Part shown: positions 17,051 through 63,551 of the stretch, piece by piece
Layout: each line of letters starts with the position of its first letter
Numbering within the stretch: position 1 is the stretch's first letter
Source of the DNA: Malacoraja senta
Taxonomy: Eukaryota
Reading direction: 5' to 3'
DNA: 64,000 bases
Assembly: GCA_038087875.1 (NCBI GenBank)
Contig: CM075987.1
Span: 27,282,001 to 27,346,000, forward strand
Program-made: the position numbers and the translations under genes
Notes under the pieces: model-generated
What the model was told of the DNA's origin: nothing
The model's database searches: none
The model's input: the letters and a program-made list of their open reading frames with translations, nothing else

Positions 17051-17178
17051 AGATGAAAATGCTGGAGAAACTCAGCAGGTGAGGTAGCTTTTCCTTCACT
17101 CCATAGATGCTGCCTCACCCTCTCCAGCATTTTATCTACCTTCGATTTTTTCAGCATCTGCAGTTCCTTCTTAAACAA
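17051..17178. mobile_element. Penelope pLTR-derived fold-back element inserted in a Rex-like fragment
   Basis: Flanked by CTGAATCTGGTGGT at 17037-17050 and 17179-17192. Confidence 0.75.
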
Positions 17179-23775: not shown

Positions 23776-25431
23776 CTGCTTTAATAATGAAGAGCAATTT
23801 CTCAACCAGTCCTACGAACTTCTAACGTGACACATCACGTAGCAACTACCAACATGACACAGCACTGTAGTGCAGCGGTAGAGTTGCTGCCTCACCACAC
23901 CAGAGTTATTACCTCAAAGATGCTGTCTGCCTCCATGAGCAAGTTTGTCTGAAGAAGGGTCTCGACTCAAAACGTCACCCATCCTTTTTCTCCAGAGATG
24001 CTGCCTGACCCGCTGAGTTACTCCAAATTACCTGCTGAGTAACACCAATAGGTTTCAATGAGGTCCCGCCTCATCCTTCTAAACTCCAGCAGGTACAGGC
24101 CCAGAGACATCAAACCCTCCTTATACGTTAATTAAATCATTCCCGGGATCATTCCCGTAAACCTCCACTGGACCCTCTCCAACTCCTCCAACGCCAGCAC
24201 ATCTTCTCTCAGTTGTAACGTAGATGTCCACCACTGATATTCCAGCAACAGCTGCTCCTGCACCTTCTTTAATCCAGAAATACAAGATTCTCATTCTCGT
24301 TAGCCGTTCCTTAATCTAAGGATGCTAAATCTGGCATTGTATTCCCTACATCCAAGTGGATTGGAGCAGCCCAACTCAAATAGACCTGCATGGAACTTGG
24401 TCAACTCTTTCCCAGCTTTCCTTCCTCCTGCACCAAGGAGGAAGGAATCAGTATGAAGGTCCCGAACTGAAACATCACCTATCCATGTTCTCCACAGATG
24501 CTGCCTGACTCGCTGAGTTACTCCAGCACTATGTGAAACGTCACATATCCATGTTCTCCACAGATGCTGCCTGACCCGCTGAGTTACTCCAGCATAGTGC
24601 AGTTTTGTTGAAACTCCTTGTTTCTACACCTTGGTAAATACTAGACCTTGCAGCCAGCGAGTGGTCCCACATCATTTCCAGTGAATAGTTAGTAAAAGTG
24701 CCCATTTTAGTTGAGTTTAGGTTGTAGTCACGATTTAATAGGAACCCAAGGGGTAGGATGGTGGGTGTGTGGAACGAGCTGCCAGAGGAGGTAGTTGAGG
24801 CTGGGACTATCGCAACGTTTAAGAAATGTATGGAGAGGTACACGGATAGGGCTGGTTCAGTCTAGTTTATTGTCACGTGTACCGAGGTACAGTGAAAAGC
24901 TTTTGTTGCTTGCAACCAGTCAGCGGAAAGACTACACATGAATACAATCGAACCATCTGGTTTTCAATGTTCAGTTTGATAAAAGTCCACTTTCAATGCA
25001 CAGAGCCATGCAATAAGCTATATTTTAAAATGAATCACATTTTTATTACTAAAAAAACAGATGCAGAGTACACAAATGATGACGTTTGAGTGATCGAAGC
25101 TGCAAACATCCACTTGGGGGTTGCTAGGTGATTACAGCATCAATGATCCCTCAGCAGTTCCTCCATTGGCAGCTGATGAGGATTTGGTCTAAAGGACAAA
25201 TGACGTATTGTTCAGTGGTTCAAATGCCACAGGTTGTTGTGGAACCTGAACTGACTTCATCCGTGACATATTCCCCGCATCCCTGATGTGGCGTAGACTT
25301 TTCCAAACTTGCATAGCAACAACAAAGCTCGGTACAAAAGACAACAAGTGAAGCCCACCCTTCTGTGTGAACGCTCTCATCTCTTTAAATGGTTCAAAGG
25401 TACTTTATTGTCACATGTACCTAGCTACAGT

Positions 25432-26537: not shown

Positions 26538-28427
26538 ACCCGTTCCTTCTCTCCAGAGATGCTGCCTGTCCCGCTGAGTTACTCCAGCTGTTTGTGTCTA
26601 TCTAGCATTGCAGATTGGTTTTATTTGGTAAATTGTTTAAACTGTGCTTGCTGTAGAAGGATAGACCAATTTGGGTTGAAATAACTGGAGGAAAGTAAAA
26701 CTTATTAATAAATAATTTAGTATATTTCTGGAGCTGGAGTCTGATTGAGACTGGGGATAGCTCCTGCCCCTTGAAAGTTGCAGGGGTCTCTTTCTGCTTC
26801 ATTTGGTAACTTGCAATTACACATAAGATGCGAGCCATGCTGAGTGGGTATAAGAAACCCGGCAGTGCCATGACACAACAGAGATTCTTCCAAGGTTAAA
26901 ATGTGCTGTTTTTGCTGTTCCTGACCCTGGGCCAGTATAGACCAGACACAAAGTGGGTCAGGCAGCATAATAAGTTCAGAAGTTCCAGGAGCAGAATTAG
27001 GCCATTCGGCCCATCAATTCTACTCCGCCATTCAATCATGGCTGATCTATCTTTCCTTTCACCTATTCTCCTGTCATCTCCCCATAACCCCTGATACCCG
27101 TAATAATCAAAACCTGTCAATCTCCAGCTTAAAATATCCATTATTGGCCGCCACAGCCATCTGCGGCAATGAATTCCACAGATTCATCACCTCTGACTAA
27201 AGAAATTCCTCCTCATCTTCTTTCTAAAGAAATGTCTTAGATTCTCCCACTAGTGGAAACATCCTCTCCACATCCACTCTATCCAGGCCTTTCACTGTTC
27301 TGTACGTTTCAATGAGGCCCCCCCTCATCCTTCTACACTCCAGCAAGTACAGGCCCAGTGCTCATTCTCCACAGATGCTGCCTGACCCACTGAGTTACTC
27401 CAGCATTCTGCAAAACGTCACCTATCCATGTTCTCCACAGATGCTGTCTGACTCACTGAGTTACTCCAGCACTTTGTGAAACGTCACCTATCCATGTTCT
27501 CCACAGATGCTGCCTGACCCGCTGAGTTACTGCAGCACTTTCTTTGGTTATAAACTAGCATCAACATTTCCTTGTGTCTACATTTTCCAGAGATGCTGCC
27601 TGACCTGCTGAGTTTCTCCAGAATTGGATGTAAAGATTAAAACGATGTCTATCTTTAGTATAAACCACGTCTGCAGTTCCTTGTTTCTACATTCTAGTAT
27701 AGAAGCTGTTTCTCCTTTATGACTTTTGCTGGCGGGCGGAAGTCCGTTTGACTACGAAGAAGGGTCGAGAAGAAGCTGTGCTGATCTGGGACCATCTAAT
27801 CCACGCAGCGCGGAGCGGTAAAGGAAAACAAGTCGGCACTTTATGTGACGACTCCACTTGCTCGTGAATCGCCTTTACCGAAAATAAAACATCCCAGAGC
27901 TCTTGGAAAGTGGCAGCCCATTAATCTTCAGTGCTTCAGTTCAACCATTTGTTCTTTAACACAAGGTGACTTTATCAGCACCAGCACTCAATTAATGAAA
28001 TGCAAGTGATAAATCTCTGAGGAAACTGCAGAAATTATCAGCCTTTTGGACAGGATAGTGAGTAACGGCCTCAGTCTGCTAGCAAAAGTGATAAAGGAGA
28101 AAGAGAAAAAGGCAGCTAGCATCAATCACTCCCTAAAGATATACTCATTGACACATATAATTGCCAGTTATTCTAATGTTAATCGCTGTAAGTCAATGAT
28201 TCTCTGTTTCTCTTGATATTGGTTAGGGAGTAATAAAGTGGGATGGATCCTGGCAGGAAGGCACCACTGGGTCCACGGACTGCGAGGGCCGACTGCATCA
28301 TATCCAAGGGCGAAGAGGAAAAACGACCAAATTAACTGACGAAAAGCTTGAGTTACTTTACTATTAAAAAAAAGTCAGCTCTCAGCTAGGAGTTCACGAT
28401 GGTTTAAACCCAATCACATTTACTGTA

Positions 28428-33742: not shown

Positions 33743-34913
33743 GACTGGGATCTGGACTTCAGAAGATGCTGGTAAACAGAAAAGGACGCAATGTGCTGGA
33801 GTAACTCAGCGGGTCAGGCAGCATCTGTGGAGAACATGGATAGGTGACGTTTTAGTCAAGAGTCTTACGAAGGGTCGTGACTCGGAAAGTCACCTATCCA
33901 TGTTCTCCACAGATGCTGAGTTACTCCAGCACCCTGTGAAACGTCACCTATCCATGTTCTCCAGAGATGCTGCCTGACCCGCTGAGTTACTCCAGCACCC
34001 TGTGTGCCCTGTCTTTAGTGATGCATTGTATTATTTGTCCAATAAAATGACTGGATTTAGTCTGTTGTTCTGATCTGAGTTCTACATGGAGAAATTGTAA
34101 TATTTTCCAGTCATAATACAAGATGCAGTGATTCTCTAGACACAGCTAATGCCCTTCTCCATCCAGCCCATCCTCTGGTACATGCATCAGTGGGGCTCAG
34201 ACATGCACCAATGTGAGTCGGGAAGGTAGAAGAAACACATGATATCGTTCACGTTATAGGAGCAGAATTAGGCCATTCGGCCCATCGAGTCCACTCCGCC
34301 ATTCAATCATGGCTGATCTCTGCATCCCAATCCCATTTTCTTGCCTTCTCCCCATAACCCTTGACACCCGTTCTAATCAAGAATCTATCTATCTCTGCCT
34401 TAAAATATCCACTGACTTGGCCTCCACAGCCCTCTGTGGCAATGAGTTCCATAGATTAACTACCCTCTGACTAAAGAAGTCCCTCCTCACCTCCTTCCTA
34501 AAAGAGTGCCCTTTAATTCTGAGGCTGTGACCTCTGGTCCTAGACTCTCCCACCAGTACGTGGGATTGTTTCATGGGACAACTCGGGCGAGTAGACAGTG
34601 ACATCTTCAGCCGTGTAGATGCTCGAGCTGCTCTACCCGTGACCAACTGTGTCAGTGGATAACTGGACTTCCCCACATTGTCTTCAACCAGACAATGTAA
34701 ATTGATATGGAGTTTGAGTTTCAGTTGAGTTTATTGTCACGTGTACCGAGGTGCAGTGAAAAGCTTTTGTGGCCTGCTAACCAGTCGGCGGAAAGACAAT
34801 ACGCGATTACAATCGAGCCGTTTACAGAGCGGAGGATCAGTTTGTGGGATCATTCTTTTGCGAAGCCTCCTGTGGGACTATGAGCATCCTGCGTACATCA
34901 TGGACCTTAGTAC

Positions 34914-35830: not shown

Positions 35831-36182
35831 ACCCTCGCGCTTTATGAAACTTTGAAATTATCTCACTACATAAAAACTACTCAATAAAGATTTTGAATCG
35901 GTTTCCAAAGCAAGACGGCAAGAATGAAGTTGAGAGATTTTTCCACACAAAGGGTGGTGGGTGTATGGAACGAGCTGCCAGAGGAGGTGGTTGAGGCTGG
36001 GACTATCACAATGTTTAAGAAACAGTTAGACAGGTACATGGATAGGACAGGTTTGGAGGGATATGGGCCAAACGCGGGCAGGTGGGACTAGTGTAGATGG
36101 GACATGTTGGCCAGTGTGGGCAAGTTGGGCCGAAGGGCCTGTTTCCACACTGTGTGACTCTGTGAGAGGCTGGTGGACTTAC

Positions 36183-36388
36183 TCGTAGAAGTGGCACTTG
36201 GAGATACACAGGAAGGTGCAGTCCCTCTGAGTCTTGATGCTGAAGATGAGGGGCTCCCCAGTCAGCACTGCCAGTTGGCCCACTATCTCACCCGGGTGGG
36301 CAACAAACAGGCAATTCTCCTCCTCCCTGTCGATCATTCGCTGGTAAACATGTAGCAGCCCCGACACCACAAAATGAATGCTGACATC
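36183..36388 (-). CDS. PNPLA7: PNPLA7 coding exon (second cNMP-binding domain)
   Basis: 206 nt, ccacag/gtaagt: [68 protein letters not shown](E). Confidence 0.95.
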
Positions 36389-36509
36389 CTGTGGAGGCAG
36401 CAACACTGGGTCAGTAAACACATTCGCCAGACTGAAATGTTCCTCTGTTGTCAATACAGCAGCAATTCTCTTTCTAGGCCACCATAGCCAAACTTATGGA
36501 AATTCAGCA

Positions 36510-36722
36510 AAGATAGACACAAAATGCTGGAGTTGCTGACCTGAACTCAGCTGGTCAGGCAGAATCTATGGAGAAAAGGAAGGGTTTTGGTTCGAGGAAG
36601 GGTTTTGACACGAAACGTCACCTATTCCTTTTCGACAGAAATGCTGCCTGACCCGCTGAGTTACACCAGCATTTGTATCTATCTTCGGCATAAACCAGCA
36701 TCTGCAGTTCCTTCCTTCACAA
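36510..36722. mobile_element. Penelope pLTR-derived fold-back element
   Basis: Inverted pLTR halves flanked by GGAAATTCAGCA at 36498-36509 and 36723-36734. Confidence 0.75.
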
Positions 36723-37061
36723 GGAAATTCAGCATCTTGCTTCAAACAAAAAGTAGTTAGACGAGATTGACTTATTCTTATTACCACATCGAAGGAGACC
36801 GTCATAACTAGAATTGTTGTACAGGTACTTGTAGATCATTGCTGCTAAATTAGCAACATCGTCAAGTATATTTTATAATACCGTACACGGTGGAACAGGC
36901 AGGGGACAGGAACAGCGGCGTGAACCTCACAAGTTAAACCCAAACTTTAACACAAGCCACACTTGCGCAGATACTGTAGAACAATTTTTGAATTCTAGAG
37001 TTTGTGCAGATCATTAGATTTTAAATGACTAGTCCAGAAAAAAAAATAAAAGTATAAAAGT

Positions 37062-37846
37062 ATCCTTTATTGTTATTCAGACATTTCAGTCTGGATGAAA
37101 TTGTGAACCTTGCAGTCATAACATAGAATAAAATAACAAAACACACACTTAACACAGTTTTACATCCACCACAGTGAGTCTACCAGGCAACTCCTCACTG
37201 TGATGGAAGGCAAAAGTCTTAAAGTCCTTGTCTCTTCCCGCCTTGTTCTCCCTCTGCGTTGAGGCGATCCAGGCTTCCGATGTTGTGACCCCGCCGGGTG
37301 ATGGTAAGTCCCGCGGCTGAATCCGAGCTCCGCAAACGGGCCGGTTCAAACTCCGCGGCCCAGGGCGGTCGAAGCTGCCGAAGCTGCCACCCTCCAGTCC
37401 AGCGGACGAAGCTGTTGTTGCGGGAGCTCCGGAAAAACAGGTCACCAACGTGTGACCTGCGAGCTCCCGACGATGTCGTCCACTCGGCCCGCGGCCGAGC
37501 CTCCGAGGCTCCGAAGTCGGGTCGCCGCCGCCGCAACAGCCCTGAAGTCGGCCAGTGAGTGGTGAGTCCTGGCTCTGCCTCCGGAGCCTCGAGGTCAGTC
37601 CCAGTTGGAGGCCGCCAACTCCGCCATTAGGCCTCAGCGCAGACGGAAACGGAGACGGGGGATATGACAAGAAAAGGTCGCATCCCCCCGAAGGAAGAGA
37701 CTAAAACAAGTCCCCCCCCCCCCCCTCACATACACAACTAAAATAAACTGAAATAAACTGTAACAACGAGACAAAAGAAAAGGAAAAAAAAGACAAACAG
37801 ACTGCAGGCGAGCCGCAGCTGCTAGGACAGCGCCGCCTCTTCCGGA
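37062..37846 (-). mobile_element. GC-rich non-autonomous retroelement, relative of 32164-33010
   Basis: Same architecture: 5' GGAAG(A/T)GGCGGCG..CGGCTCG.CTGCAGTC, G-run, CpG-rich body, 3' hairpin, AATAAA plus short-repeat tail. Confidence 0.7.
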
Positions 37847-37896
37847 AGAATTAGAAGAATTAATAAACCCGTGCAATCTTATTGCTTTTGTTTTAT

Positions 37897-38750
37897 CCAG
37901 TTGGGCCTTGTAACCAAAGTTAGATGGGCCTAACCAAAGTTAGTTGGGCCTGTAACCAAAGTTAGATGGGCCTTGTAACCAAAGTTAGTTGGGCCTGTAA
38001 CCAAAGTTAGTTGGGCCTGTAACCAAAGTTAGATGGGCCTTGTAACCAAAGTTAGATGGGCCTAACCAAAGTTAGTTGGGCCTGCAACCAAAGTTAGATG
38101 GGCCTTGTAACCAAAGTTAGATGGGCCTGTAACCAAAGTTAGTTGGGCCTAACCAAAGTTAGTTGGGCCTGTAACCAAAGTTAGATGGGCCTTGTAACCA
38201 AAGTTAGATGGGCCTAACCAAAGTTAGTTGGGCCTGCAACCAAAGTTAGATGGGCCTTGTAACCAAAGTTAGTTGGGCCTGTAACCAAAGTTAGATGGGC
38301 CTTGTAACCAAAGTTAGATGGGCCTAACCGAAGTTAGTTGGGCCTGTAACCAAAGTTAGTTGGGCCTGCAACCAAAGTTAGTTGGGCCTGCAACCAAAGT
38401 TAGTTGGGCCTGCAACCAAAGTTAGTTGGGCCTGTAACCAAAGTTAGATGGGCCTTGTAACCAAAGTTAGATGGGCCTAACCAAAGTTAGTTGGGCCTGC
38501 AACCAAAGTTAGATGGGCCTTGTAACCAAAGTTAGTTGGGCCTGTAACCAAAGTTAGATGGGCCTTGTAACCAAAGTTAGATGGGCCTAACCAAAGTTAG
38601 TTGGGCCTGTAACCAAAGTTAGTTGGGCCTGCAACCAAAGTTAGTTGGGCCTGTAACCAAAGTTAGTTGGGCCTGCAACCAAAGTTAGTTGGGCCTGTAA
38701 CCAAAGATAGTTGGGCCTGTAACCAAAGATAGTTGGGCCTGTAACCAAAG
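37897..38750. repeat. Minisatellite, 20/22/23-bp unit variants
   Basis: Roughly 39 tandem units of (T/C)AACCAAAGTTAG(A/T)TGGGCC plus nothing, TG or TTG. Confidence 0.95.
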
Positions 38751-38995
38751 ACAGGCGGAGGGGCAGGTAGTGTTGAGGAAGCAGGGACTCTTTACTGGAC
38801 TTTATCTTGCACTAAACGCTATTCCCTTTATCCTGTATCAGTACACTATGGATAGCCTGATTGTAAATATGTTTAGTCTTTCTGCCGATTGGTTTGCACC
38901 AACAAAACAAGCTTTTCACTGTACCTCAGTACACTTGCAATAAACAAAACTAATATTAATGAAAGGCTTAGACTTAAAGATTGCCGTGTTCTTAC

Positions 38996-39073
38996 CTGAT
39001 CACCTTGCCGTGCTACCACCATTCCTGCTTTCACTTGCTGAAGGCTCACCCTCCCATCCAGCAGTGACGGATC
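38996..39073 (-). CDS. PNPLA7: PNPLA7 coding exon
   Basis: 78 nt, ttcctag/gtaag: DPSLLDGRVSLQQVKAGMVVARQGDQ. Confidence 0.93.
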
Positions 39074-40049
39074 CTAGGAAGAAGAAGGAAAAGCAGTGAT
39101 AAGAATAATCCATTTCTGCTCTAACCTTATCTTCTGTACTGCTCCAATTTCAAGATCTCCTCCGTCAAGCTGTCAGAAGGACATCTGATTACAGGCTGCT
39201 CAGACTACAGCTACTTGCCTTGGTCTCAGCTACATCAGAATGTAGCTCGAAAGGCAACTTCCAAATGTGTGACATATCTCCCAAATCCTACACCTCACGC
39301 TGCCTCGGCAAGGCCAGCAGCATAATCAAGGACGAGTCGCACCCCGGCCACTCCCTCTTCTCCCCTCGGGCCAAAGATACAGAAGTGTGAAAATGCACAC
39401 CTCCAGATTCAGGGACAGTTTCTTCCCAGCTGTTTCAGGCAACTGAACCATCCTAGCAACAACTAGAGCAGTGCTGAACTACTATCTACCTCATTGGTGA
39501 CCCTTGGACTGTCTTTGATCGGACTTTACTGGCTTTATCTTGCACTAAACATTCCTCACGTTTATCCTTTATCATGTATCTGTACACTGTGGACGGTTCA
39601 ATCATAATCATGTATTGTCTTTCTGCTGACTGGTTAGCAGGTAACAAAAGCTGTTCACTATCTTGGTACACGTGTCAATAAACTGAACCCAAGCGTGAAA
39701 TCCCAACTTCCGTTAATTTAATCCCAGGGCCGGCAAGAGAGGCCTGATACAACCCAGGCCAAATATTGAAAAGCAAAGGAAACAAAAATAACACCATGAG
39801 GGGAGATTTTTGTGGTTAGTGGCTCTGATTGGATTCTACGTAGGACACCATTCAGCCCATCTGAGTTGGATGATCAGCCATGATCATATTGAATGGCGGT
39901 GCAGGCTCGAAGGGCCGAATGGCCTACTCCTGCACCTATTTTCTATGTATCTATGTATCTAATCCCTGCTGGCACCCATTCACCCACCACTCCACTCCAC
40001 ATATTCCCCTCAACCTCCACACCCTCGTCCATTGCCTTTGTCACCTCCT

Positions 40050-42946
40050 ATATAACCATATAACCATAACAGCACGGAAACAGGCCATCTCGGCCCTTCA
40101 AGTCCGTGCCGAACATTTAATTTTTTTTTTTTTTTTTTTTTTTTTTAATTAAAAATAAAATGCTTCCCCCTAGTCCCATCTACCTGCACTCAGACCATAA
40201 CCCTCCATTCCTTTCCCGTCCATATACCCATCCAATCTATTTTTAAAGGATAACATCGAACCTGCCTCCACCACTTCCACTGGAAGCTCATTCCACACAG
40301 CTACCACTCTCTGAGTAAAGAAGTTCCCCCTAATGTTCCCCCTAAACTTCTGTCCCTTAATTCTCAAGTCATGTCCCCTTGTTTGAATCTTCCCTACTCT
40401 CAATGGGAAAAGCTTATCCACGTCCACTCTGTCTAACCCGCTCATAATTTTAAAGACCTCTATCAAGTCCCCTCTTAACCTTCTGCGCTCCAAAGAATAA
40501 AGACCTAACTTGTTCAACCTTTCTCTGTAACTTAGTTGCTGAAACCCAGGCAACATTCTAGTAAATCTCCTCTGTACTCTCTCTATTTTGTTGACATCCT
40601 TCCTATAATTAGGCGACCAAAATTGTACTCCATACTCCACAATTGGCCTCACCAATGCCGTGTACAATTTTAACATTACATCCCAACTTCTATATTCAAT
40701 GCTCTGATTTATAAAGGCCAGCACACCAAAAGCTTTCTTTACCACCCTATCTACATGAGATTCCACCTTCAGGGAACTATGCACAGTTATTCCTAGATCC
40801 CTCTGTTCAACTGCATTCCTCAATTCGCTACCATTTACCGTGTACGTCCTATTTTGATTTGTCCTGCCGAGATGTAGCACCTCACATTTGTCAGCATTAA
40901 ACTCCATCTGCCATCTTTCAGCCCACTCTTCCAAATGGCCTAAATCTCTCTGTAGACTTTGAAAATCTACTTCATTATCCACAACACCACCTATCTTAGT
41001 ATCATCTGCATACTTACTAATCCAATTTTCCACACCTTCATCCAGATCATTGATGTACGTGACAAACAACAGTGGACCCAACACAGACCCCTGAGGCACC
41101 CCACTAGTCACCGGCCTCCAACCTGACAAACAGCCATCCACCATTACTCTCTGGCATCTCCCATTCAGCCACTGTTGAATCCATCTTGCTACTCCACCAT
41201 TAATACCCAACAATTGAATCTTCTTAACCAACCTTCCATGAGGAACCTTGTCAAAGGCCTTACTGAAGTCCATATAGAGAACATCCACTGCTTTACCCTC
41301 ATCAATTTCCCTAGTAACCTCTTCGAAAAATTCAAGAAGATTAGTCAAGCATGACCTTCCAGGCACAAATCCATGTTGACTGTTCCTAATCAGACCCTGC
41401 TTATCCAGATGCTTATATATATTATCTTTAAATATCCTTTCCATTAATTTGCCCACCAATGACGTCAAACTAACAGGTCTATAATTGCTAGGTTTACTCT
41501 TCGAACCCTTTTTAAACAACGGAACAACATGCGCAGTACGCCAATCCTCCGGCACTATTCCCGTTTCTAATGACATTTGAAATATTTCTGTCATAGCCCC
41601 TGCTATTTCTACACTAACTTCCCTCAATGTCCCAGGGAATATCCTGTCAGGACCTGGAGACTTATCCGTTTTCATATTTTTCAAAAGTGTCCGCACCTCC
41701 TCTTCTTTGAATCTCACAGTTTCCATTGCTACTCTGCTCGTTTCCCTTACCTCACATAATTCCATATCCTTCTCCTTCGTGAATACCGAAGAAAAGAAAT
41801 TGTTCAATATCTCCCCCATCTCTTTTGGCTCTGCAGATAGCTGTCCACTCTGACTCTCTAATGGACCGATTTTATTCCTTGTTATCCTTTTGCTATTAAT
41901 ATAGCTGTAGAAACCCTTTGGATTTACTTTCACCTTACTTGCCAAAGCAACCTCATATCTTCTTTTAGCTTTTCTAATTTCTTTCTTAATATTCTTTTTA
42001 CATTCTTTATACTCCTCAAGCACCTCATTTACTCCATGCTGCCTATAATTATTGTAGATCTCTCTCTTTTTCCGAACCAAGTGTCCAATTTCCCTTGAAA
42101 ACCATGGCTCTTTCCATTTTTTACTATTTCCTTTCAACCGAACAGGGACATAAAGATTCTGTACTCTTAAAATTTCACCCTTAAATGTCCTCCATTTTTC
42201 TTCTACATCCTTCCCATAAAACAACATGTCCCAATTCACTCCTTTTAAATCCTTTCGCATCTCCTCAAAGTTAGCCTTTCTCCAAACAAAAATCTCAACC
42301 CTAGGTCCAGTTCTGACCCTCTCCATAATTATATTGAAACTAATGGTATTGTGATCACTGGACCCGAAGTGCTCCCCGACGCATACCTCCGCCACTTGCC
42401 CTGTCTCATTTCCTAACAGGAGGTCCAGCACTGCCCCTTCTCTAGTAGGTACCTCTATGTATTGCTGCAAAAAACTATCTTGCACACATTTTACAAACTC
42501 CAAACCATCCAGCCCTTTTACAGAATGTGTTTCCCAGTCTATGTGTGGAAAATTGAAATCTCCCACAATCACTACCTTGTGCTTACTACTAATATCTGCT
42601 ATCTCCTTACATATTTGCTCTTCCAATTCTCGCTCCCCATTTGGCGGTCTATAATACACCCCTATAAGTGTTGCTACACCTTTCCCATTTCTCAGTTCCA
42701 CCCAAATAGCCTCCCTAGACGAGCCCTCTAATCTATCCTGCCAAAGCACTGCTGTAATATCTTCCTTGACAAGCAATGCAACACCCCCACCTCTTGCCCC
42801 TCCAATTCTATCACCCCTGAAGCAACGAAATCCTGGAATATTTATTTGCCAATCACAGCCCTCCTGCAACCATGTTTCACTGATCGCCACAACATCATAC
42901 TTCCAGGTGTCAATCCAGGCTCTAAGCTCATCCACCTTTCTTACAA
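40050..42946 (-). mobile_element. CR1-clade LINE, 5'-truncated, intact ORF2 (EN+RT)
   Basis: Uninterrupted ~925 codons with ISETWL, VYYRPP, GDFNFP, SDH, NYRPVSLTS, DFSKAFD, GVPQGSVLGP, YADD; 3' UTR ends in (TTATATGG)-type repeats; TCCT on both sides. Confidence 0.95.
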
Positions 42947-43080
42947 TCCTCAAAAAACTCAATCGTTAATAAGTCTTGTAAAGATCTGATACAAAACAAA
43001 GTTCCTTCTACAGGATATGATTTTACAAATCAAAATCTGTAACTGACCAACACTAAGTTAACAATGTGTTAATAATAATT

Positions 43081-43366
43081 CGGCACAGTGGGGCAGCCTT
43101 ACAGCGGCAGAGACCCGGGTTCGATCCTAACTGTGGTGCTGTCTGTGTGGGGTTTGCACGTTCTCCCTGTGACTGTGTGGGTTTTCCGCAGGAGTTCGAG
43201 TTTCCTCCCACACTCCCAAGATAGGTAGGTTAGGAGGCTAATTGGCTTCAGTAAAATTGTAAATTGCCCTAAGTACGCAGGATAGTGCTGGTGTGCGGGG
43301 ATTGCTGGTCGGCACGGACTCAATGGGCCGAAGAGCCTTTTTCCGCGCAGTATCACTAAAGTCTAA
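43081..43366 (+). mobile_element. V-SINE (HE1-like)
   Basis: Forward copy with B box GGTTCGATCC. Confidence 0.75.
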
Positions 43367-44327
43367 GACTGAACAAATAGTAACGGAGATGGCAGCATTA
43401 GCAAGCTGACTCAAGGCCTCAATGCTTGCTCTCTAGATTACAACACTACAGGTTTTAAGTGTGCCATTATTCAGCTACATAACTGACAAGGCCACATAAA
43501 CCATTTGGTGCATAGCTTGGCAGCAATTTGCAAAGAGCAAATTAGCTAAAGGAATGATATTTCACTCAACACATGACAGTCTTTACACAAAGCAATTCAT
43601 TCTCATCTTTCATTCAAACATTCCCAAAATGATCCTCCGCAAAGGATACATTGTCAAATGAAAAGCCCGCAGGAGAATGAATGACATGCTCGGAGGGAAG
43701 ATTCAGCTAGATTTGAATGAAAAATGAAAGCAAAGTGCTTTGTGTGGAAGACTCTTGGTGTTAGTGAACTATTGGTAAATTTGTTCTTTGAGAATCACTG
43801 CCAAGCTGTGCATTAATTAGATTAGGTCGTTGTGAATAATTAATGGTTTGAATAGCAGCACATACTTGAAGTACATCAAAGCCTTGAAACAGCTTCCTCT
43901 GGTCCAGAAACCAAATGTGGCCGAGGGTGAACTCAGGAAGGGAAATTACTGCAGATACTTAAACCAGGTAGCATCAGCAGAGAGCAAAGTAAAGGCAATG
44001 TTTCAAGTCCAGGACCTTTCATCAGAATAATTTCTGTCCCCACAGCTGGTCTGACCTACTGAGGAGTGCCAGTATTTCCAGTTTTCATTTCCAATTAGAA
44101 TCACAGAGTGATACAGCGTGGAAACAGGCCGTTTGCCCACACCGGCCAACATGCCCCATCTACACAAGTCCCACCTGCCTGCAAAAGGCCCATCTCCCTC
44201 CACAACTGTCCTATCCATACACCTGTCCAAATGTTTCTTAAACGTTGGGAAAGTACCTGCCTCAACCTTTAGGCCATTCGGCCCATCAAGTCTACTCCGC
44301 CATTCAATCATGGCTGATCTATCTCCA

Positions 44328-44576
44328 TTTTCAACATGTTGAAAATCCAGCGGCAACCAGAAAGACGCTACGACTATTTTGGCGAGTGAGGAGACGCCTC
44401 ACGACCATACAGGCGACACCCTGGTGACATGTCGCGGGGTGAATTCTGTATGGTTGTGAGTAGTCGCCCAAAGAGTCGTACCTTGTCACCGCTGGATTTT
44501 CAACGTTGAAATTTTTCGACAACCTGCAACGGTGCCGGCAGTCGCCGAAAAAGTTGCGTAAGTGGGACAGGCCCAT
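44328..44576. mobile_element. Partial fold-back MITE (Harbinger-like end)
   Basis: Internal inverted repeats TTGAAAATCCAGCGG / CCGCTGGATTTTCAA and ACCATACAG / CTGTATGGT; ends TAAGTGGGACAGGCCC; left terminus not seen. Confidence 0.55.
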
Positions 44577-44914
44577 TGGACACCTGCTGGAACCTGCACT
44601 GTTACATAAATGTAGGTGGTTGCTGCTAACTCCAAATAGATTTGGACGCTCAGATATGCATAGGATGCGGTCGCCTGGAATAAACAATTAGTGAAACAGA
44701 TAACTCCATCAGGAGGAGTTTATCTATTCAACACTCCCTGAGTTAATACATATCGCAAGCAAAGAAGAATGGACGTGAAGACTTGAAGGGCTGAATGGTC
44801 TCATTCTGCACTTATCACTTATGAACTTGAAGAAAATGTATATAATGGGATCAGGCTTTGTATATGCTGAACATTATTGATCAAAATGTAGGCTAGCACT
44901 ATATTGTTGATAAT

Positions 44915-45225
44915 TTTAGACTTTACTTTAGACTGCAGACATACGGCGTGGAAACAGGCCCTTCGGCCCACCGAGTCTGTGCCGACCAGTGATCATTCCA
45001 TAAACTAACACTATCCTACTCACTAGGGTCAAGTTACAATTTTTTTTACAGAAGCCAATTAACCTACAAGCCTGCACGTCTTTGGAGTGTGGGAGAAAAC
45101 CGGAGAAAACCCAAGCAGTCACAGGGAGAAGGTACAGACTCCGTATAGACTGCACCCTTAGTCAGGGTCGAACTCGGGTCTCTGCCGCTGTGAGGCAGCA
45201 ACTTTATCGCTGCTCCACTGTGCCA
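44915..45225 (-). mobile_element. V-SINE (HE1-like)
   Basis: Reverse copy. Confidence 0.75.
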
Positions 45226-45851
45226 CACATAACTTCAGGAGTTCTTCTGAACATAATCTCCATCTATAACTTCAGAATGTGATCATCAGCACAGTTTATG
45301 CTCAGCATCCACTAGTGTTGTGGCACCGTGATACAGTTACGTTCTATAAATAATATTTGCTATCACTTTACTAACTGGCTGGCAAAACAGATCAACTCTT
45401 ACATATTACGCTACAATATAGCAGAGTTTCACTTCAAGATATGATGTGCATTCAATAATGTTCACTTGACGTCCAGTTTCTTATTTGACGCGATGGAAAA
45501 TCAATCATACAGCAGCTTAAGAGTAATCGAATTAAAATTTCGTAAATTTATTTTCATCCAAACTGATTAGTGTAAAAAGGTTCTCAGAGCCAAGTGTGTA
45601 ATCAATCATTCCTTGATCGGGGCTTGGATCGGAATCTGTAAGATTAAAAGACTCAGCAATCCTTTCGGAAGGAGCAACACAGGGAGTGAAAGACTTAAAC
45701 AGCTCATCTGCAAACATTTGCCAGGAAAACAGAGTCCAATAAGCGAGTTTGGTATTCCGAAAAACGCAAGGAATCCTGGGATTTGACAAAGGTCACTCGC
45801 TATAAAGAAAAAGCAAATGTATTGCATCTTCTGAATGTAGTCAACAACATA

Positions 45852-46190
45852 CAGGTCCACCACCGATTTTCCGGCACCCTTGTTTCCAGGGTTATCCATG
45901 TTGCCGGACCACCAGAGGTCACCAGTTCCAAGAGGAGTCCAAAGTTGGCGTCGGAAGTCGGCTCTGGCCGGGATGGAGTTCCGGACACAGCGGGCACAGC
46001 GGGCCTATTCCATCCGCCGATCGGCCGCGGAAGTCCCGATGAGGTGGAGATCGGCCTCCTCGCCCGGCCTAGGCAACACATTTTTGGGGGGGGGACATCC
46101 AGGGGGAATTTCAAGTGCGCTCTGGTAATTTTGTCCAGATTAAAGGAGGTGCCAGGCCAGCAGTTTGCTGGAAAATCAGCGGTGGACCTA
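45852..46190. mobile_element. Tc1/mariner (pogo/Tigger-like) MITE
   Basis: TA-flanked; left CAGGTCCACCACCGATTTTCCGGCA vs right reverse complement TAGGTCCACCGCTGATTTTCCAGCA. Confidence 0.75.
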
Positions 46191-46245
46191 TACCACGTTT
46201 GTTTTGATAAAAAGGTCGGCTGAGGCAAGTATTTTTAGAACTTAC

Positions 46246-46395
46246 ATCTAGTTTCATCAAAGTCAGGAGATCCTTCTTGGCAGCCTCTAGGATCTGTTGC
46301 TTATGGTTGGTGACTATGCCAGTGTGGTCCTCACCCTCAGTGTAATGGTAAACGCTGGGTTGCTCGAGCATAGTCACACTCTTCTTCACTGTGGT
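46246..46395 (-). CDS. PNPLA7: PNPLA7 coding exon
   Basis: 150 nt, caatag/gtaagt: TTVKKSVTMLEQPSVYHYTEGEDHTGIVTNHKQQILEAAKKDLLTLMKLD. Confidence 0.9.
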
Positions 46396-46549
46396 CTATT
46401 GAAACAGAAGAATTAAAGTTAGCTACATATATACGTAGATAGATTTATTTCAGGTTTTCAGCATCTGCGCGTTTTTTTAGTGTGTTTTGTCTTGTTTCTC
46501 CAGGATTCTTTACAAAAATATGAGCATCACATATCTTGAATATTTTATA

Positions 46550-46716
46550 TTTAAGAAGGAACTGCAGAAGCTGGAAAATCGAAGGTAGACAAAAATGCTG
46601 GAGAAACTCAGCGGGTGAGGCAGCATCTATGGAGAGAAGGAAAAAAACACTTTTTTTCCCTTCGCTCCATAGATGCTGCCTCACCCGCTGCGTGTCTCCA
46701 ACATTTTTGTCTGCCT
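46550..46716. mobile_element. Penelope pLTR-derived fold-back element
   Basis: Inverted halves flanked by TTGAATATTTTATA at 46536-46549 and 46717-46730. Confidence 0.75.
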
Positions 46717-47580
46717 TTGAATATTTTATAGAAATGTTTAGTTTATTGTCATGTGTACCGAGGTACAGTGCAAAGCCTTTTTCTTGCATGGTATCCAATC
46801 AATGGAAAGACTATACATGATTACAACCAAGCCGTCCACAGTGTACAGATACAGGATAAAGGGAGTAGCGTTTAGTGCAAGATAAAGACCAGTGAAGTCT
46901 GACTAAACTTTAAGGGTATCCAATGAGGTAGATCGCTGGTGACATCCACTCTCTAGTTGGTGATAGGATGGTTCAATTGTATCTGTGTAACCTCACCCAT
47001 TCCTTCTCTCCAGAGATGCTGCCTGTCGCGCTGAGTTACTCCAGCATTTTACTCCAGCAAAATTCAATATATATATATATATTTATATACACACCAGTAT
47101 ATATATATATATATCTACACAAAATAAATATATATATAGAGAGAGAGGCAAAAAGACCCAAAGTGCTGGAGTAACTCAAGAGTCCAGAGTGTTTTATTGT
47201 CACATATCCCAGCCAGAACAGTGACATTCTTACTTGTGGCAGCACAACAATAATAGTGCAGAAAGACAAAGCCAATGCCCCCCCGGGTCTCTGGAGTTCA
47301 GAGATTATCAGCAGGTCAGGCAGTGTCTCTGGCAAACCAGCTGTGCATACCCAGTATTTTAGTTTTATTTATTTCATAGCAGCTGCAACTTTTATTATAT
47401 TAACATTACGATTCTCAATCGTGCTGAAGCAATCAAATTATTTATAACACGTGCTAACTACCAGAATGGCAAATCCAAGATAACGACAGGATCCTTGATG
47501 ATTTAGAACAGGATGTCATTTGTTCCCTTTGTTAATGATGCCCAACTTGGTCTGCCTCTGCTGCAGGCTTCACGAACTAT

Positions 47581-47608
47581 CTGAAGAAGGGTCTCGACCC
47601 GAAACGTC
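47581..47608 (+). ncRNA. Minimal hammerhead ribozyme motif (Penelope pLTR-derived)
   Basis: CTGAAGA-A-GGGTC-TC-GACCC-GAAA-C-GTC: hammerhead core, stem II, palindromic ACGT helix III, GUC triplet; helix I is very short. Confidence 0.6.
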
Positions 47609-47705
47609 ACCCATTGCTTCTCTCCAGAGATACTCCAGCAATTTGTGGCTATCTTCAGTCGCCCATAACTCAGTTTCATTAACTGTTGTACAAAGTGATA
47701 TTTAC

Positions 47706-47812
47706 CTTAATACCAGACATGGCAGGACTGGAGCAGTGCTCTTCTGCCAACAGACTGACCCTCGCTCTCTCACACGCTGTGTTCATGTCAGATTTACCAC
47801 CCGCCAATCCTC
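47706..47812 (-). CDS. PNPLA7: PNPLA7 coding exon (linker; most 5' coding exon visible)
   Basis: 107 nt, ttgcag/gtaaa: (G)GLAGGKSDMNTACERARVSLLAEEHCSSPAMSGIK, resembling the recalled SDxxMACxRARV linker of PNPLA7; ends phase 0 as the next exon needs. Confidence 0.85.
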
Positions 47813-48666
47813 CTGCAATGAGAAAAGGCAATTACTTCCCAGCAAAAGAACTGTTCATTAATCCAATAATACAGGATACAAATTCCCAATGACCTGTATC
47901 ACCACATTGAGCGTTAAAGGTTAGTTTTAATATGCAATGAATCCGCTGGATTTGGAGGGAGGTGGGGATAGAGAGTCATAGAGTCATACTGTGCAGAAAC
48001 AGGCCTTCCAGTTCCCTCCCACTTTCCAAAGACGTACATGTTTGTAGGTTAATTGGCTTGGAAAAAAATCTTAAATTGTCCCCAGTGTGTGTAGGATAGC
48101 ACTAGTGTACGGGGTGATCGCTAATCGGTGCAGACTCGGTGGGGCAAAAGGCCTGTTTCCGCACTGTATCTCTAAAGTTTAATGTCTAAAGAGAAGTGAG
48201 AGAGAAAGAGACATCTTTTGTTGGAACAATCTCCTGTGATATTTTGAGAACCTGATATTAAACAAAATGACGTATCAAAATAATATCTCAATATTTTAGC
48301 ACGTGTAGTTCCTTCTCCCTCATTTTCACCCACAGTTCAATTACCATTTCTGGGCAAGTCACCATGTCTACATAGAAACATGGAAACATAGAAAAATAGG
48401 TGCAGGACTAGCCCATTCGGCCCTTCGTGCCAGCACCGTCATTCAATATGATCATGGCTGATCATCTAAAATGAGTACCCTATTCCTCCTTTCTACCCAT
48501 ATCCCTTGATTCCGTTAGCCCTAAGAGCTAAATCTAGCTCCCTCTTGAATGCATCCAGTGAATCGGCCTCCACTGCCTTCTGTGGCAGAGAATTCCACAC
48601 ATTCACAACTCTCTGGGTGAAAAAGTTTTTCCTCATCTCAGTCCTAAATGGCCTACCCTTATTCTT

Positions 48667-48840
48667 GTTTAAGAAAGAACTGCAGATGCTGGAAAAATCG
48701 AAGGTAGACAAAAAAGCTGGAGAAACTTAGTGGGTGAGGCAGCATCTCTGGAGCGGAGGAATAGGCGACGTCACCTATTCCTTCGCTACATAGATGCTGC
48801 CTCACCCGCTGAATTTCACCAGCTTTTTTGTCTACCTACA
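48667..48840. mobile_element. Penelope pLTR-derived fold-back element inserted in a CR1 fragment
   Basis: Inverted halves flanked by CCTTATTCTT at 48657-48666 and 48841-48850. Confidence 0.75.
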
Positions 48841-49111
48841 CCTTATTCTTAAACTGTGACCCCTGGCTCTGGACTCCCAACATCGGGAACATTTTTCCTG
48901 CCTCTAGCCTGTCCAACTATCTCTACACTAAACTCGTGACACTCATCAGTAAGTCTCCCTTGAAGGACTTGCAGCTGAATAAACTATTGCAATCCGTTTG
49001 ATTCATGATCAACACACTTTTCCGGAAATCATTTGGTCTATGAATGAACCGTCTGAGCTCCATGATTAGATTCTATCTAACAACTCATTCTGGTGCGCAA
49101 GCCACGATTAG

Positions 49112-49408
49112 ATTTTAGTTTTTGTTTGGAGATACAGCGCGGAAACAGGCCCTTTCGGCCCACTGAGTACGCACCGACCAGCGATCCCTGCCCACTAAAA
49201 CTACCCAACACACACTAGGGTCAATTTTACATTCATACCAAGCCAATTAACCGGCAAACCTGTACGTCTTTGGAGTGTGGGAGGAAACCGAAAATCTCGG
49301 CGTAAACCCACGCAGGTCACGGGGAGAACGTACAAACTCCGCACAGACAGCACCCGGGTCTCTGGCGCTGTGAGGCAGTCGCTCTACTGCCGCACCACTA
49401 TGCCGCCC
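49112..49408 (-). mobile_element. V-SINE (HE1-like)
   Basis: Reverse copy with internal deletion. Confidence 0.75.
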
Positions 49409-50062
49409 TATTTCTATTTGTTTTTGTCCTTGAGCACCCTCTGTAAATGACCCACACGCCTACATTAGGCCAACATTCACTACTTTGTTTCTGTTCCTCT
49501 CCACTGAACATCCCTTTAGGGTCAAGGACAAATTGTGTGTTTCCAAGGATATTGCCTTTAATAAATCGGTCAAAAGAAACATTAAAGATTGCTGACGCAA
49601 ACTATGGGACATTTCCTTTGTCACTATGTGTGTTATATGTCAAGAAAAAAGAATCATTAATTTTTCAGTGATCATAAATCTGCCCTCCACAAAATAACAA
49701 TGCCCCTTGTAATGTCTGATGGAAATTTCTCAATGGTATCGTCTTTGTTATTGCTGTCTTAAGAAGCACCACTAAATCCACAAAGTGTTTTCATGCACAT
49801 ATTACCGCTACTTCAAACCATTGTAATGTTTGCTCAATGCACGTGACAACGTGACAACTACATTATTAAAGTGATACACCAAACAGTAACTTAAGCATGG
49901 AATGATGCCCATAAAGGCAACATTTGACATAATGAATGCAAAACTGCTGCAATGTGTAGGAAGGAACTGCAGATGCTGGTTTAAACCGAATATTGAAGAT
50001 AGACACAAAAAGCTGGAGTAACTCAGCGGGACAGGCAGCATTTATGGAGAGAAAGAATGGGT

Positions 50063-50090
50063 GACGTTTCGGGTCAAGACCCTTCTTCAG
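50063..50090 (-). ncRNA. Minimal hammerhead ribozyme motif, sense to PNPLA7 pre-mRNA
   Basis: Minus strand gt-CTGAAGA-A-GGGTC-TT-GACCC-GAAA-C-GTC-ac. Confidence 0.6.
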
Positions 50091-50186
50091 ACTGAAGAAA
50101 GATCTTGACCCGAAACGTCACCCATTCTTTCTCTCCAGAGATGCTGCCTGTCCCCCTGAGTTACTCCAGCTTTTTGTGTCTATCTT

Positions 50187-50325
50187 CAATATACATACCA
50201 CTGGGCTGTAAGCCACCCAGCCAAATTTGGGATGCTGTTCATACAATTTGGGCTGGGCCTCACACTGACAGTGGAGGAGGCCCAGGATAGAAAGGTCAGT
50301 GTGGGAATGGGAAGGGGAGTTAAAG
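50187..50325 (-). mobile_element. Penelope GIY-YIG C-terminal fragment
   Basis: HFNSPSHSHTDLSILGLL..KL.EQH matches the C-terminus of the 4047-4580 ORF. Confidence 0.75.
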
Positions 50326-50426
50326 TGTGTGAGAAAGAACTGCAGATGCTGGATAAAATCGAAGGTAGACACAAAATGCTGGAGTAACTCAGCGGGTGAG
50401 GCAGCATCTCTGGAGAGAAGGGATGG

Positions 50427-51410: not shown

Positions 51411-51697
51411 ATCATGAGAGGCATAGATAGGGTCGACAGGCAGAGATTAGTTTAACGGCATAATGTTTGGCATGGACATTGTAGGCTGAAAGGCCTGTTC
51501 CTGTACAGTTCTAACTATAATCATTTCCTCTCAGTGATCTTGCAACTATAACATGCACAATTATTTTGGAATATTACAAGCTTTTCTCTGGCTGAACTGG
51601 CAATTAATCAAACTACTGGAAAGTTAGTGAAGAATTATACCTTTGACTGTAGAGCATCCTTAACAAAGTTATCCATCTCTGTTAGGTGTAATTAGCC

Positions 51698-52105
51698 ATG
51701 GGATTACTATCGAATCTGGCCCGAGGTTTGGTGCGAGGAGCTGATCGAACCGCAGAAATCACAAGTAAACGTGGTCCCAAGAGTTTCTACCGATCCAGGG
51801 GAGCCAAGCCAACGGGATATATAACTTCCAGTGGCAAGTTTGTAAAGATAAAAAAAATGGTGCCTGAGCTGGTGGTTCCTAATTTAAAAGGTTTCCCCCT
51901 GAAAGCGTACGTGTCGTACAAAGCACCGAGTGGAACAGAGCAGCCGCTAACGGCCAAGAAGCTCTTCATGGAAACTGCTGCTGTGCAAATCGAGAAAGAT
52001 TTTCGGGAAGGTACCTTTGACTCGAATCGCCTGGAAAAATATGGCTTTGAACCATCACAAGAGGACAAAGTCTTCCGGCTGTTTCCAAAAAATTATGTGC
52101 GGTAA
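51698..52105 (+). CDS. MRPL41: 39S mitochondrial ribosomal protein L41 (mL41)
   Basis: 135-aa [74 protein letters not shown] Kozak; acceptor tctgttag ends 51685; single coding exon as in mammals. Confidence 0.97.
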
Positions 52106-57428: not shown

Positions 57429-57901
57429 TTAAGTGGAAGATACAGTGTTGTTTCTTTCCCACTTCCAAACATGCAAGACATGGTCATAGAAGGAACATGT
57501 TGCCAACAAATCACCTTTCTTTTTAGTCCAATCAATCCCGGCCTTGAAGTTCTGCTGTTCTTTCATGGCAAGGTCCGTACTTGGACATTGAGAGGTACCA
57601 CTGGCCTGCAGACTGCTTGAAGACCTAGAGCCATAATCATCTGCCTCATCTTCCACCACCATATCAAATAAACCTGTGGGAGATTCATACTGAATCTTTA
57701 GATGCTGGAACTTGACTACTGCTTCCTTTGTTCCTTGTTCACGATCCTTTTTCCTCTGAGTTTCAGCTAATAACGAAGGTACAGACCAAGGCTCTGAGGT
57801 GGGTTGAGCATCGATTGATAACCTTGACCAGTCTGCCCCATATGCCAGTGAATTGTGTAATATGTATGAATAAAGAATCGGGCATCCTTCTTGACCTGTA
57901 G
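57429..57901 (-). CDS. DPH7: DPH7 (diphthine methyltransferase/WDR85) last coding exon
   Basis: Reads ..CPILYSYILHNSLAYGADWSRL..LLATCSFYDHVLHVWKW..stop; HxSLAYGADWS and LATCSFYD motifs of DPH7; phase 1 matches the upstream exon. Confidence 0.92.
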
Positions 57902-58284
57902 CTGAAGAAAACAGAAACTATTTGAATTAAAATAAACACGTACTATGAAATAATACATATAATTGAAAAACAGTTAATACACAACTGTTATACAATCCCG
58001 TTCAAAGGGTCTTGACAAACAAACGCATGGTTACCGAATTATTTGCAGTTTACGGTTAAACCCAATCATATCCAGGCTTCTTAATATCAATTTTATACGA
58101 TGCTGCCTTTCATTCTATTATTTTGAGTTCAGTGGTAAAAAAGCTGTCATTTTGTGTAAACAGATAGCAATTACTCTTAAATTCAGTCTCAGCCACAATA
58201 TTCACCAGCTGTAATACCTTATCTATCAAGAATCTTACAACTCACTAATGACTTAGTTATGTGACCAACGAGTGATTCAGACAA

Positions 58285-58475
58285 AATAGACACAAAATGC
58301 TGAAGTAACTCGGTGGGCCAGGCAGCATCTCTGGAGAGAAGGAATGGGTGACGTGTCGGGTCGAGACCCTTCTTCAGACTGAAGAAGGGTCTCGACCCAA
58401 AACATTATCCATTCCTTCTCCACAGAGATGCCGCCTGTCCCGCAGAGCTACTCCAGCTTCTTGTGTCTATCTTCG
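58285..58475. mobile_element. Penelope pLTR-derived palindrome in DPH7 intron
   Basis: Two inverted halves joined at cttcagactgaag; both hammerhead cores carry GAAA mutations. Confidence 0.75.
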
Positions 58476-63121: not shown

Positions 63122-63551
63122 TTAGACTTCTGATCAATAAGAAATCCTGACTGACAAAATTATTTAAAACATTTTCTGTTATTGTAATAAATTAATAATT
63201 CTTTAAATGCCCAGTAAACCATAATCCAAAATCATACCCCTAAATTGATCCTGCACACATCTGATGTCAAGGAAATCAGCATTTTGTAACAGTATTTTCA
63301 CCAAACGCTGACATTTTTCTCTATCTTGTCCAGGGACATTGAAGCTAAATTTATCACTTCAATTTCTGTCTCTGCTGAGATCAGATAGTTCACCAAGAAT
63401 TAAACTCATGATATTTCTGATCTGTAAGCGATTAATTACAGCACCAAACAATTAATTTACTACAAATAAGCTGTCCAGGCTGACGATGCACCAAAGAACA
63501 TTGAACACAACCATTTCTATTTTAGCAAATAGACGTTAGCATTTAACTGTT
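63122..63551. repeat. Direct repeat copy 2 flanking the L1 (~430 bp)
   Basis: Nearly identical to 58684-59107. Confidence 0.95.

Follow-up and report, generated by a model that had tools for sequence, protein, structure and literature searches.

A 64,000-nucleotide stretch of the genome of the skate Malacoraja senta (contig CM075987.1, positions 27,282,001 to 27,346,000, forward strand; hereafter "the window") is dotted with short fold-back sequences, each made of two inverted copies of the end of a Penelope-like element (PLE). Are these hairpins copied as palindromic units, or is each one built when it inserts? Our preferred answer, to which we assign a probability of roughly 70%, is that they are minimal, dead-on-arrival insertions of an endonuclease-bearing (EN+) PLE of the Neptune/Nematis type, and that each hairpin was built at insertion. 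All counts refer to the window unless a sequencing run is named.

A reading of the window made from its letters alone (the sequence-only reading) had derived the fold-back sequences from a Penelope at 3826-4770. The Penelope origin holds, but the limits of the element needed correction, to approximately those given here:

3822-4767, plus strand: 5′-truncated Penelope-like element of 946 bp, with the thumb, linker and GIY-YIG end of an open reading frame (ORF; open at 4020-4580), a 3′ region and a pseudo-long terminal repeat (pLTR) ending at site 1.

In sequence comparisons, the repeated sequences, which we call arms, correspond to the last 100 bases of this element. The element itself sits within the tail of an older pLTR arm and is flanked by an 11-bp duplication with 2 mismatches (3811/4768). 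Within the same region (3804-4824), a different repeat interrupts the far side of the older arm that hosts it. This copy of the element is truncated and lacks the reverse transcriptase (RT) core, and its ORF end has a weak match to GIY-YIG (E = 0.0014, below the cut-off). Homologues of the ORF end at 49-76% include RT-bearing proteins, and the best ones come from rays, sharks and a skate. Relatives of about 820-1,900 amino acids mostly contain RT, and one full-length relative has both RT and GIY-YIG. A CX2-5CxxC linker occurs in the ORF of the window copy, as it does in 81 of 97 full-length relatives; such a linker before GIY-YIG is given as a mark of the Neptune and Nematis clades in the available part of PMC8557442. 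Judged by these features, the source of the arms is an EN+ PLE of the Neptune/Nematis type.

The arms start at a hammerhead-like core, whose two boxes and intervening hairpin are all present in 10 of the 20 arms that span it. An Rfam search yielded no hammerhead family, only sub-threshold matches resembling microRNA hairpins. At their 3′ end, arms stop either at site 1 (model position ~98-101) or at site 2, about 35 bases beyond it. The extension from site 1 to site 2 is the "tail" of PLEs, which in vitro, for the element Poseidon_Ac, is bounded by two sites where RT starts (PMC11167929). An ORF starting inside the pLTR could not be shown: the frames through the tail differ among six arms and have no credible homologue. 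Motifs from the pLTR had no matches in viral contigs or in prokaryote genomes. Two metagenome matches were dismissed as chance, with similarity confined to the surroundings of the 20-base motif; an earlier metagenome search had given none.

Scanning the window with a profile built from 19 of its arms revealed 55 pLTR arms, amounting to 4,733 bp or 7.4% of the sequence, while one reversed and four shuffled windows gave no match. The arms group into 37 units. Where arms abut (gap of at most 20), they are arranged head-to-head in 12 cases, head-to-tail in 5 and tail-to-tail in 1. A thirteenth head-to-head pair, at 6788, has a 107-bp spacer between its arms. The 13 pairs, which have no assigned strand, are as follows:

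6025-6209: older fold-back pair; target-site duplication (TSD) not found.
6788-7124: head-to-head pair with an unrelated spacer of 107 bp; degraded TSD 6781 / 7125.
8870-8989: short fold-back pair (8858); degraded TSD 8855 / 8990; interrupts an older long interspersed nuclear element (LINE).
10806-11017: fold-back pair; junction overlap of 3 nt; TSD doubtful.
17051-17178: fold-back pair; tail on right arm; TSD 17037-17050 / 17179-17192; interrupts an older LINE.
20033-20283: older head-to-head pair with 11 bp of filler.
21870-22062: fold-back pair; junction overlap of 3 nt.
33763-34018: fold-back pair of subfamily C with an internal 66-bp duplication.
36510-36722: fold-back pair; left arm ends at site 1, right arm has the tail (site 2); TSD 36498-36509 / 36723-36734.
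46550-46716: fold-back pair of subfamily A; tail on left arm; TSD 46536-46549 / 46717-46730.
48667-48840: fold-back pair of subfamily A; palindrome ACGT at its center; tail on left arm; TSD 48657-48666 / 48841-48850; interrupts an older LINE.
49955-50190: fold-back pair; its center is a 9-nt quasi-palindrome at the pLTR 5′ boundary; arms identical at 77 of 80 positions; TSD not found.
58283-58474: fold-back pair; center as in 49955; no clear tail; TSD not found.

All six of the additional palindromes that the sequence-only reading had placed near 6030, 10806, 20060, 21880, 49955 and 58285 are among these pairs. Its description of two inverted copies of the Penelope terminal sequence was likewise confirmed, except that the two arms differ in extent: one stops at the end of the pLTR and the other carries the tail of ~35 nt. 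Pairs range from 120 to 340 bp (213 bp for the insert at 36498, 167 bp at 46536, 174 bp at 48657 and 128 bp at 17037), with arms of 25-135 nt that have no ORF, and they are drawn from at least three pLTR subfamilies visible among the arms. The predicted stability of the hairpins is 40-180 kcal/mol. A single arm, in the one case folded, does no better than shuffled sequences (z = -0.95). In subfamily C, a 66-bp head-to-tail internal duplication of the pLTR recurs with an identical junction at three loci (24468-24594, 27365-27541 and 33861-34018). The arms are very abundant: their summed depth is ~10^7, as opposed to ~30 for unique contigs in run X1, a figure that supports abundance and is not a copy number. 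The spacer of the pair at 6788 (6890-6996) is 83% identical over 42 bp to 7431-7472, and is possibly captured LINE sequence. The pair at 49955 adjoins an older, minus-strand piece of a Penelope ORF (50186-50327). Within 49955-50327, site 1 of its tail-bearing arm is followed by 7 additional bases that are a mirror of the other arm's flank, which could reflect a template jump at insertion or a later switch of DNA template.

The fold-back pairs are true insertions: at three of them, paralogous LINE copies carry the flanking repeat just once. We found three such empty sites for the pair at 48657, two for 17037 and four for 8858. The pair at 8858 is a third case beside the two copies already proposed to split older LINEs, which indeed do so. 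In addition, contigs that skip 183-190 bases at 48657 occur in all four runs, with 2-34 contigs per row among the matches listed. The five direct repeats named in the sequence-only reading are exact: 36498/36723 (12 bp), 46536/46717 (14 bp), 48657/48841 (10 bp), 17037/17179 (14 bp) and, around a single arm, 5720/5833 (14 bp). The generalization that every element is bracketed by its own repeat applies to these named copies and not to the family, as perfect TSDs (10, 12, 14 and 14 bp) were found in 4 of the 13 pairs and degraded ones in 2 (8858 and 6788). No TSD was found for the pair at 49955, which lies within the span (36498-50190) that the sequence-only reading gave for the family. Across all inserts, TSDs are 10-15 bp long. 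An automatic search with a score threshold of 10 recovered a TSD in 4 of the 13 pairs (8858, 36498, 46536 and 48657) and missed 17037, where the profile overshot the end. Among mismatched end pairs, 2 of 156 reached the same score, as did 6 of 300 random sites.

The runs also bear on the age of the copies. Unique pieces of the window match run X1 without differences, and differ by ~3-6% in runs X3, X4 and X5. At the left junction of the pair at 36498, a contig of X3 reaches 66 bases into the element, and one of X4 ends at about 36576. The site is therefore filled in the organisms of both runs, and the copies are accordingly old. For run X5 and the junction at 49955, overlaps of 20-28 bases, under the 31-letter bar, point the same way. 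No orthologous empty site was seen in X3, X4 or X5 among the matches listed, which is not evidence of absence; these matches include no piece at 46536.

How the pairs are put together follows recognizable rules. Both 3′ ends of the element point outward. The tail is on exactly one arm in 11 of the 13 pairs, on both in none and on neither in 2 (p = 0.011 against an independent 50:50 choice); one of the tail-less pairs, at 33763, has a partial tail below threshold. At 17051, 36510 and 46550, the tail-less arm ends at site 1 right beside the TSD. Moreover, partner arms share 15 rare variants where 3.1 are expected, a number reached in none of 5,000 permutations. Within the 9 pairs of subfamily B, they share 7 compared with 1.9 expected (fraction 0.0004 of 7,330). 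Junctions differ among the 12 pairs examined (the pair at 6788, with its spacer, was left out). Palindromic centers are found at 49955, 58283, 48667 and 8858, and some junctions contain 7-16 bases of filler. The earlier statement that the fold-back point differs between copies is accordingly right about the variation, though the variation is not random, and two pairs have the same 9-nt center. Together, the one-tail rule, the shared variants and the differing junctions favor assembly at insertion over descent from a palindromic master.

The same ends and TSDs are found on inserts that are not pairs, including the 946-bp Penelope and the following:

5734-5832, plus strand: single arm (the 5736 arm) extending from the 5′ boundary as far as site 1; 95% identity to the pLTR of the Penelope itself; TSD 5720-5733 / 5833-5846.
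5120-5344, plus strand: single arm with tail, interrupted by a later LINE piece (5196-5295); 12-bp TSD 5109-5120 / 5345-5356.
23203-23226, plus strand: tail-only insertion of 24 bp; 15-bp TSD with 1 mismatch.

This continuum of pairs, single arms, a stub and a longer element points to abortive target-primed reverse transcription and not to a palindromic master. It is one of the grounds, along with the differing junctions, on which we support an earlier suggestion that Penelope integration yields the hairpins as a stereotyped abortive product, made anew each time an insertion takes place.

The most distinctive property of the arms is where they begin. Their 5′ ends could be scored in 44 of 55 cases; 5 internal tandem repeats, 3 arms cut by later insertions, 1 at an assembly gap and 2 tiny ones were left out. 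Of the 24 arms that reach model position 6, 22 end within positions 1-6 and 2 continue, where the background hazard is 0.0054 per base. The boundary lies just 5′ of the hammerhead core. The sequences upstream are unrelated: none of 12 flanks tested resembles the ORF end or another flank above the random 99th percentile. In both copies that cross the boundary, a pyrimidine tract with CAG as its last bases lies at this point and resembles a splice acceptor:

4577-4673, plus strand: putative intron of 97 nt (GT, polypyrimidine tract, CAG) in the 946-bp Penelope, ending at the arm 5′ boundary and proposed from these motifs only.
6342-6500, minus strand: single arm with tail that continues beyond the 5′ boundary, across a pyrimidine tract whose last bases are CAG.

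A PLE intron in D. virilis likewise ends at the 5′ edge of ribozyme helix I, according to the available part of PMC4209133. The bases at the skate boundary are compatible with a second signal. The consensus of the transcription initiator is YYANWYY, and they fit it also. No arm has a first exon, and the 5736 arm starts with a genomic AG, which weakly favors a transcription start over a spliced template. A spliced template that retains its first exon was rejected, because the upstream flanks are unlike the ORF end and unlike each other. Cleavage by the hammerhead also fails as the main source of 5′ ends, because the cut would be expected ~30 bases downstream; only 5 of 38 arms end in positions 31-40, and these are scattered. 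The boundary suggests run-off of the cDNA from the 5′ end of an RNA. By eye, a G precedes the first A in 3 of 5 arms (a possible copy of the cap) and T is changed to A in 2 single arms, numbers that are too few to count.

These observations can be assembled into a pathway. The GIY-YIG endonuclease would nick both target strands 10-15 bp apart, which would give rise to the TSDs seen here. Both 3′ ends would then prime on pLTR RNA at two sites ~35 nt apart, presumably one site per strand, consistent with the observed outward 3′ ends and single tailed arm. The shared variants suggest that both cDNAs would have one RNA, or one source locus, as their template. They would stop early or run off at the fixed boundary, probably the RNA's 5′ end. 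Finally, short self-complementary stretches might be where the two same-sense cDNAs are linked, either directly or through filler. If extension took place on one strand only, the product would be a tail-only stub, one arm by itself or a truncated element of greater length. Part of this has a precedent in vitro, where Poseidon_Ac cuts and extends both target strands, uses two RT start sites that bound the tail and is predicted to form a dimer (PMC11167929).

A more specific version of this pathway is possible, and we offer it tentatively. The hairpins could be "strong-stop"-like products, in which a Penelope protein dimer primes both strands at two start sites that lie 100-135 nt from the RNA's 5′ end. 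The cDNAs would run off at a transcription start, or at the 3′ end of an intron, just upstream of the hammerhead core, and the template may even be a self-propagating short pLTR RNA.

Several points weigh against assembly at insertion. All evidence comes from one window, and a convincing TSD is missing in 7 of the 13 pairs. In three pairs (20033, 36505 and 58283), the two arms resemble each other no more closely than unrelated arms do, and later gene conversion or hairpin repair could also produce shared variants. Junction overlaps of at least 3 nt occur in 8 of 12 pairs in comparison to 35.5% of random junctions, which is a weak signal. The pairs at 49955 and 58283 share their identical 9-nt center, and one junction type is found in three pairs (10806, 21870 and probably 36510); copied palindromic masters would produce such recurrences too. 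As to the boundary, partner arms are not independent, the 5′ ends were scored visually and the interval of six bases was picked post hoc, so that the very small p value is not to be read literally. Despite these reservations about how the ends were read, their pile-up at the boundary is plain.

The best-surviving alternative, although we regard it as unlikely, differs from assembly at insertion from a full mRNA in the template alone. It posits a separate, short pLTR-derived RNA of ~100-135 nt, similar to a short interspersed nuclear element (SINE) or a retrozyme, that starts at the boundary and is mobilized in trans by the Penelope protein, with the hairpins still made at insertion. The sharp common 5′ end (22 of 24) is what it predicts, and only 2 of 44 scored arms run upstream. 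Head-to-tail joins from tail end to 5′ boundary (47580-49951/49953), among the best supported of the matches listed, are found in 21-45 contigs per row in runs X1, X3, X4 and X5; there are none in the window. A 66-bp internal duplication recurs in subfamily C as a feature of its own, and non-autonomous elements derived from pLTRs have been published (10.64898/2026.07.22.740005, in its available part). On the other hand, the pLTR of an ORF-bearing copy has 95% identity to the 5736 arm, the hammerhead core is intact in only 10 of 20 spanning arms, and the window contains no full-unit tandem array. Transcription from the boundary would, moreover, cost the stumps their upstream bases.

Copying of palindromic masters, transcribed and inserted whole as hairpin units, is rather improbable. 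Besides the recurrent centers (49955 and 58283) and junction type (10806 and 21870), a fold-back junction linking 46993 to 47580 on opposite strands is present in 30-46 contigs per run among the matches listed. However, most of the 12 junctions differ, and a test for shared junctions failed, with one center common to two pairs. Those that recur fall where the pLTR is self-complementary, and independent events would be drawn to such spots. Tail-less arms that end at site 1 by the TSD (17051, 36510 and 46550) would be unexpected for a 5′-truncated copy of a unit. The idea of a distinct family of hairpin mini-retroelements copied as palindromic units, one of two put forward from the sequence alone, is consequently not favored: junctions differ, pairs come from at least three subfamilies, and identical ends are seen on single arms, the tail-only insert and the 946-bp Penelope.

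We consider it more doubtful still that the second arm results from snap-back, in which an antisense template or the first cDNA primes itself. This was proposed for rotifer PLEs, according to the available part of PMC3846280, and it would predict shared variants as well as the palindromic centers at 49955, 58283, 48667 and 8858. By itself, though, it leaves unexplained the filler at 20033 and the foreign 107-bp spacer at 6788, and it offers no account of outer ends that coincide with exactly two RT start sites and a TSD. Least credible by far is a miniature inverted-repeat transposable element (MITE) or another type of DNA transposon bounded by terminal inverted repeats, which would be short, palindromic, ORF-less, TSD-flanked and abundant but should not have asymmetric ends with a tail on one arm, TSDs of 10-15 bp, lengths of 120-340 bp, TSD-flanked single arms or the end sequence of a GIY-YIG retroelement, and the 12:1 orientation bias and shared variants exclude chance neighboring of independent insertions.

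The pairs can be compared with known systems. In the available parts of PMC3846280 and PMC8557442, PLE insertion units have an adjacent inverted, 5′-truncated copy, a one-sided tail of 30-40 bp, a palindrome at the junction and a TSD, a layout with inverted truncated copies, tail and TSD that is also described in PMC8969392. The skate pairs share the inverted head-to-head copy (13 pairs), the tail at one end (11 of 13), the junction palindrome, the TSD and the strong 5′ truncation with EN+ PLE units. Rotifer examples in the same passages of PMC3846280 and PMC8557442 have TSDs of 8-10 bp. Unlike those units, both skate copies are cut to 25-135 nt and lack an ORF, 13 pairs lie within 64 kb, and 5′ ends pile up at one boundary, a feature that the published passages do not mention. 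The layout is therefore the published PLE signature in its smallest form, and the structure is ordinary for its class. Less ordinary is that nearly all arms that reach the boundary start at the same few bases.

Poseidon_Ac (PMC11167929) is similar in having two internal RT start sites that bound the tail downstream of a hammerhead motif, in cutting and extending both target strands, and in that the template's 5′ end determines how long the product is. It belongs to a different clade, as judged from the CX2-5CxxC linker of the skate element, and the paper makes no link from the two start sites to inverted pairs; for the skate arms, we could not show that an ORF through the tail is conserved. 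The available part of PMC4209133 describes dispersed minimal PLE hammerheads, most of them single and ascribed to truncated PLEs, and opposite-strand hammerhead pairs 100-700 bp apart in Schistosoma, but it contains no analysis of TSDs, tails or junctions and no cartilaginous fish. Non-LTR retrozymes are, in the available parts of PMC7229834 and 10.64898/2026.07.22.740005, short, ORF-less, pLTR-related and hammerhead-bearing like the skate arms. They consist of head-to-tail tandems with canonical ribozymes, in contrast to the head-to-head pairs and minimal, often decayed cores of the skate. We rejected a non-LTR retrozyme for the window, where the tandems consist of internal duplications of 66 bp without the first core box and include no complete type I hammerhead units.

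LINE-1 twin priming, in which both target strands prime and an inversion with a TSD results, is a further parallel. The two LINE-1 cDNAs cover different parts of the RNA, whereas the skate cDNAs cover the same part.

NSRE1 of the nurse shark is, in the published passages of PMC1513397, ~100 bp long, present in 17 copies in 170 kb and without a protein match. An 18-base piece of its probe matches 11 skate arms with at most 3 mismatches, where 0.01 matches are expected by chance. NSRE1 was reported as unclassified and nurse-shark specific, with no signal from little skate DNA, and those passages give no PLE link or inverted pairing. On the strength of this one short motif, a shark relative of the arms was probably seen in 2006 without being classified. 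At the level of the class, the structure had largely been described already (PMC3846280, PMC8557442 and PMC4209133, in their available parts). Our search, which lay outside most subscription papers and outside Repbase and Dfam, found nothing on the skate family or on its 5′ boundary.

The window is rich in LINE remains and also contains gene sequence. An exon at 36179-36390 (minus strand) encodes a cyclic-nucleotide-binding domain, has no match among solved structures and resembles PNPLA6/7. The pair at 36498 lies ~110-120 bp upstream of its probable acceptor. A mitochondrial ribosomal protein ORF with the Pfam domain MRP-L27 is found at 51692-52105 (plus strand), and a stretch at 57429-57917 (minus strand) without a Pfam match is one that we take to be DPH7-like. 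PNPLA7, MRPL41 and DPH7 are neighbors in mammals. Other repeats include a probably young LINE of the CR1/L2 type with an open endonuclease-RT frame of 931 amino acids (40170-42965, minus strand), a 22-bp minisatellite of 38.9 copies (37899-38750) and frameshifted ORF2 pieces, presumably L1-like, at 59422-63159 (minus strand).

For annotation, the consequence is that ~7% of the window consists of stumps that might be entered as SINEs, MITEs or repeats of unknown type by automatic pipelines, and NSRE1 may be one such stump. Hairpins within introns could also be acted on by RNA editing or by small-RNA pathways. In the available part of PMC8557442, the cycle of PLEs is called undefined. One tail per pair, arms from the same source and a fixed 5′ stop can all be counted genome-wide, and offer a modest handle on PLE integration. 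If the arms do prove to be strong-stop products, the genomes of skates and sharks would hold a very large natural record of the PLE integration cycle, including whether spliced or unspliced RNA was copied.

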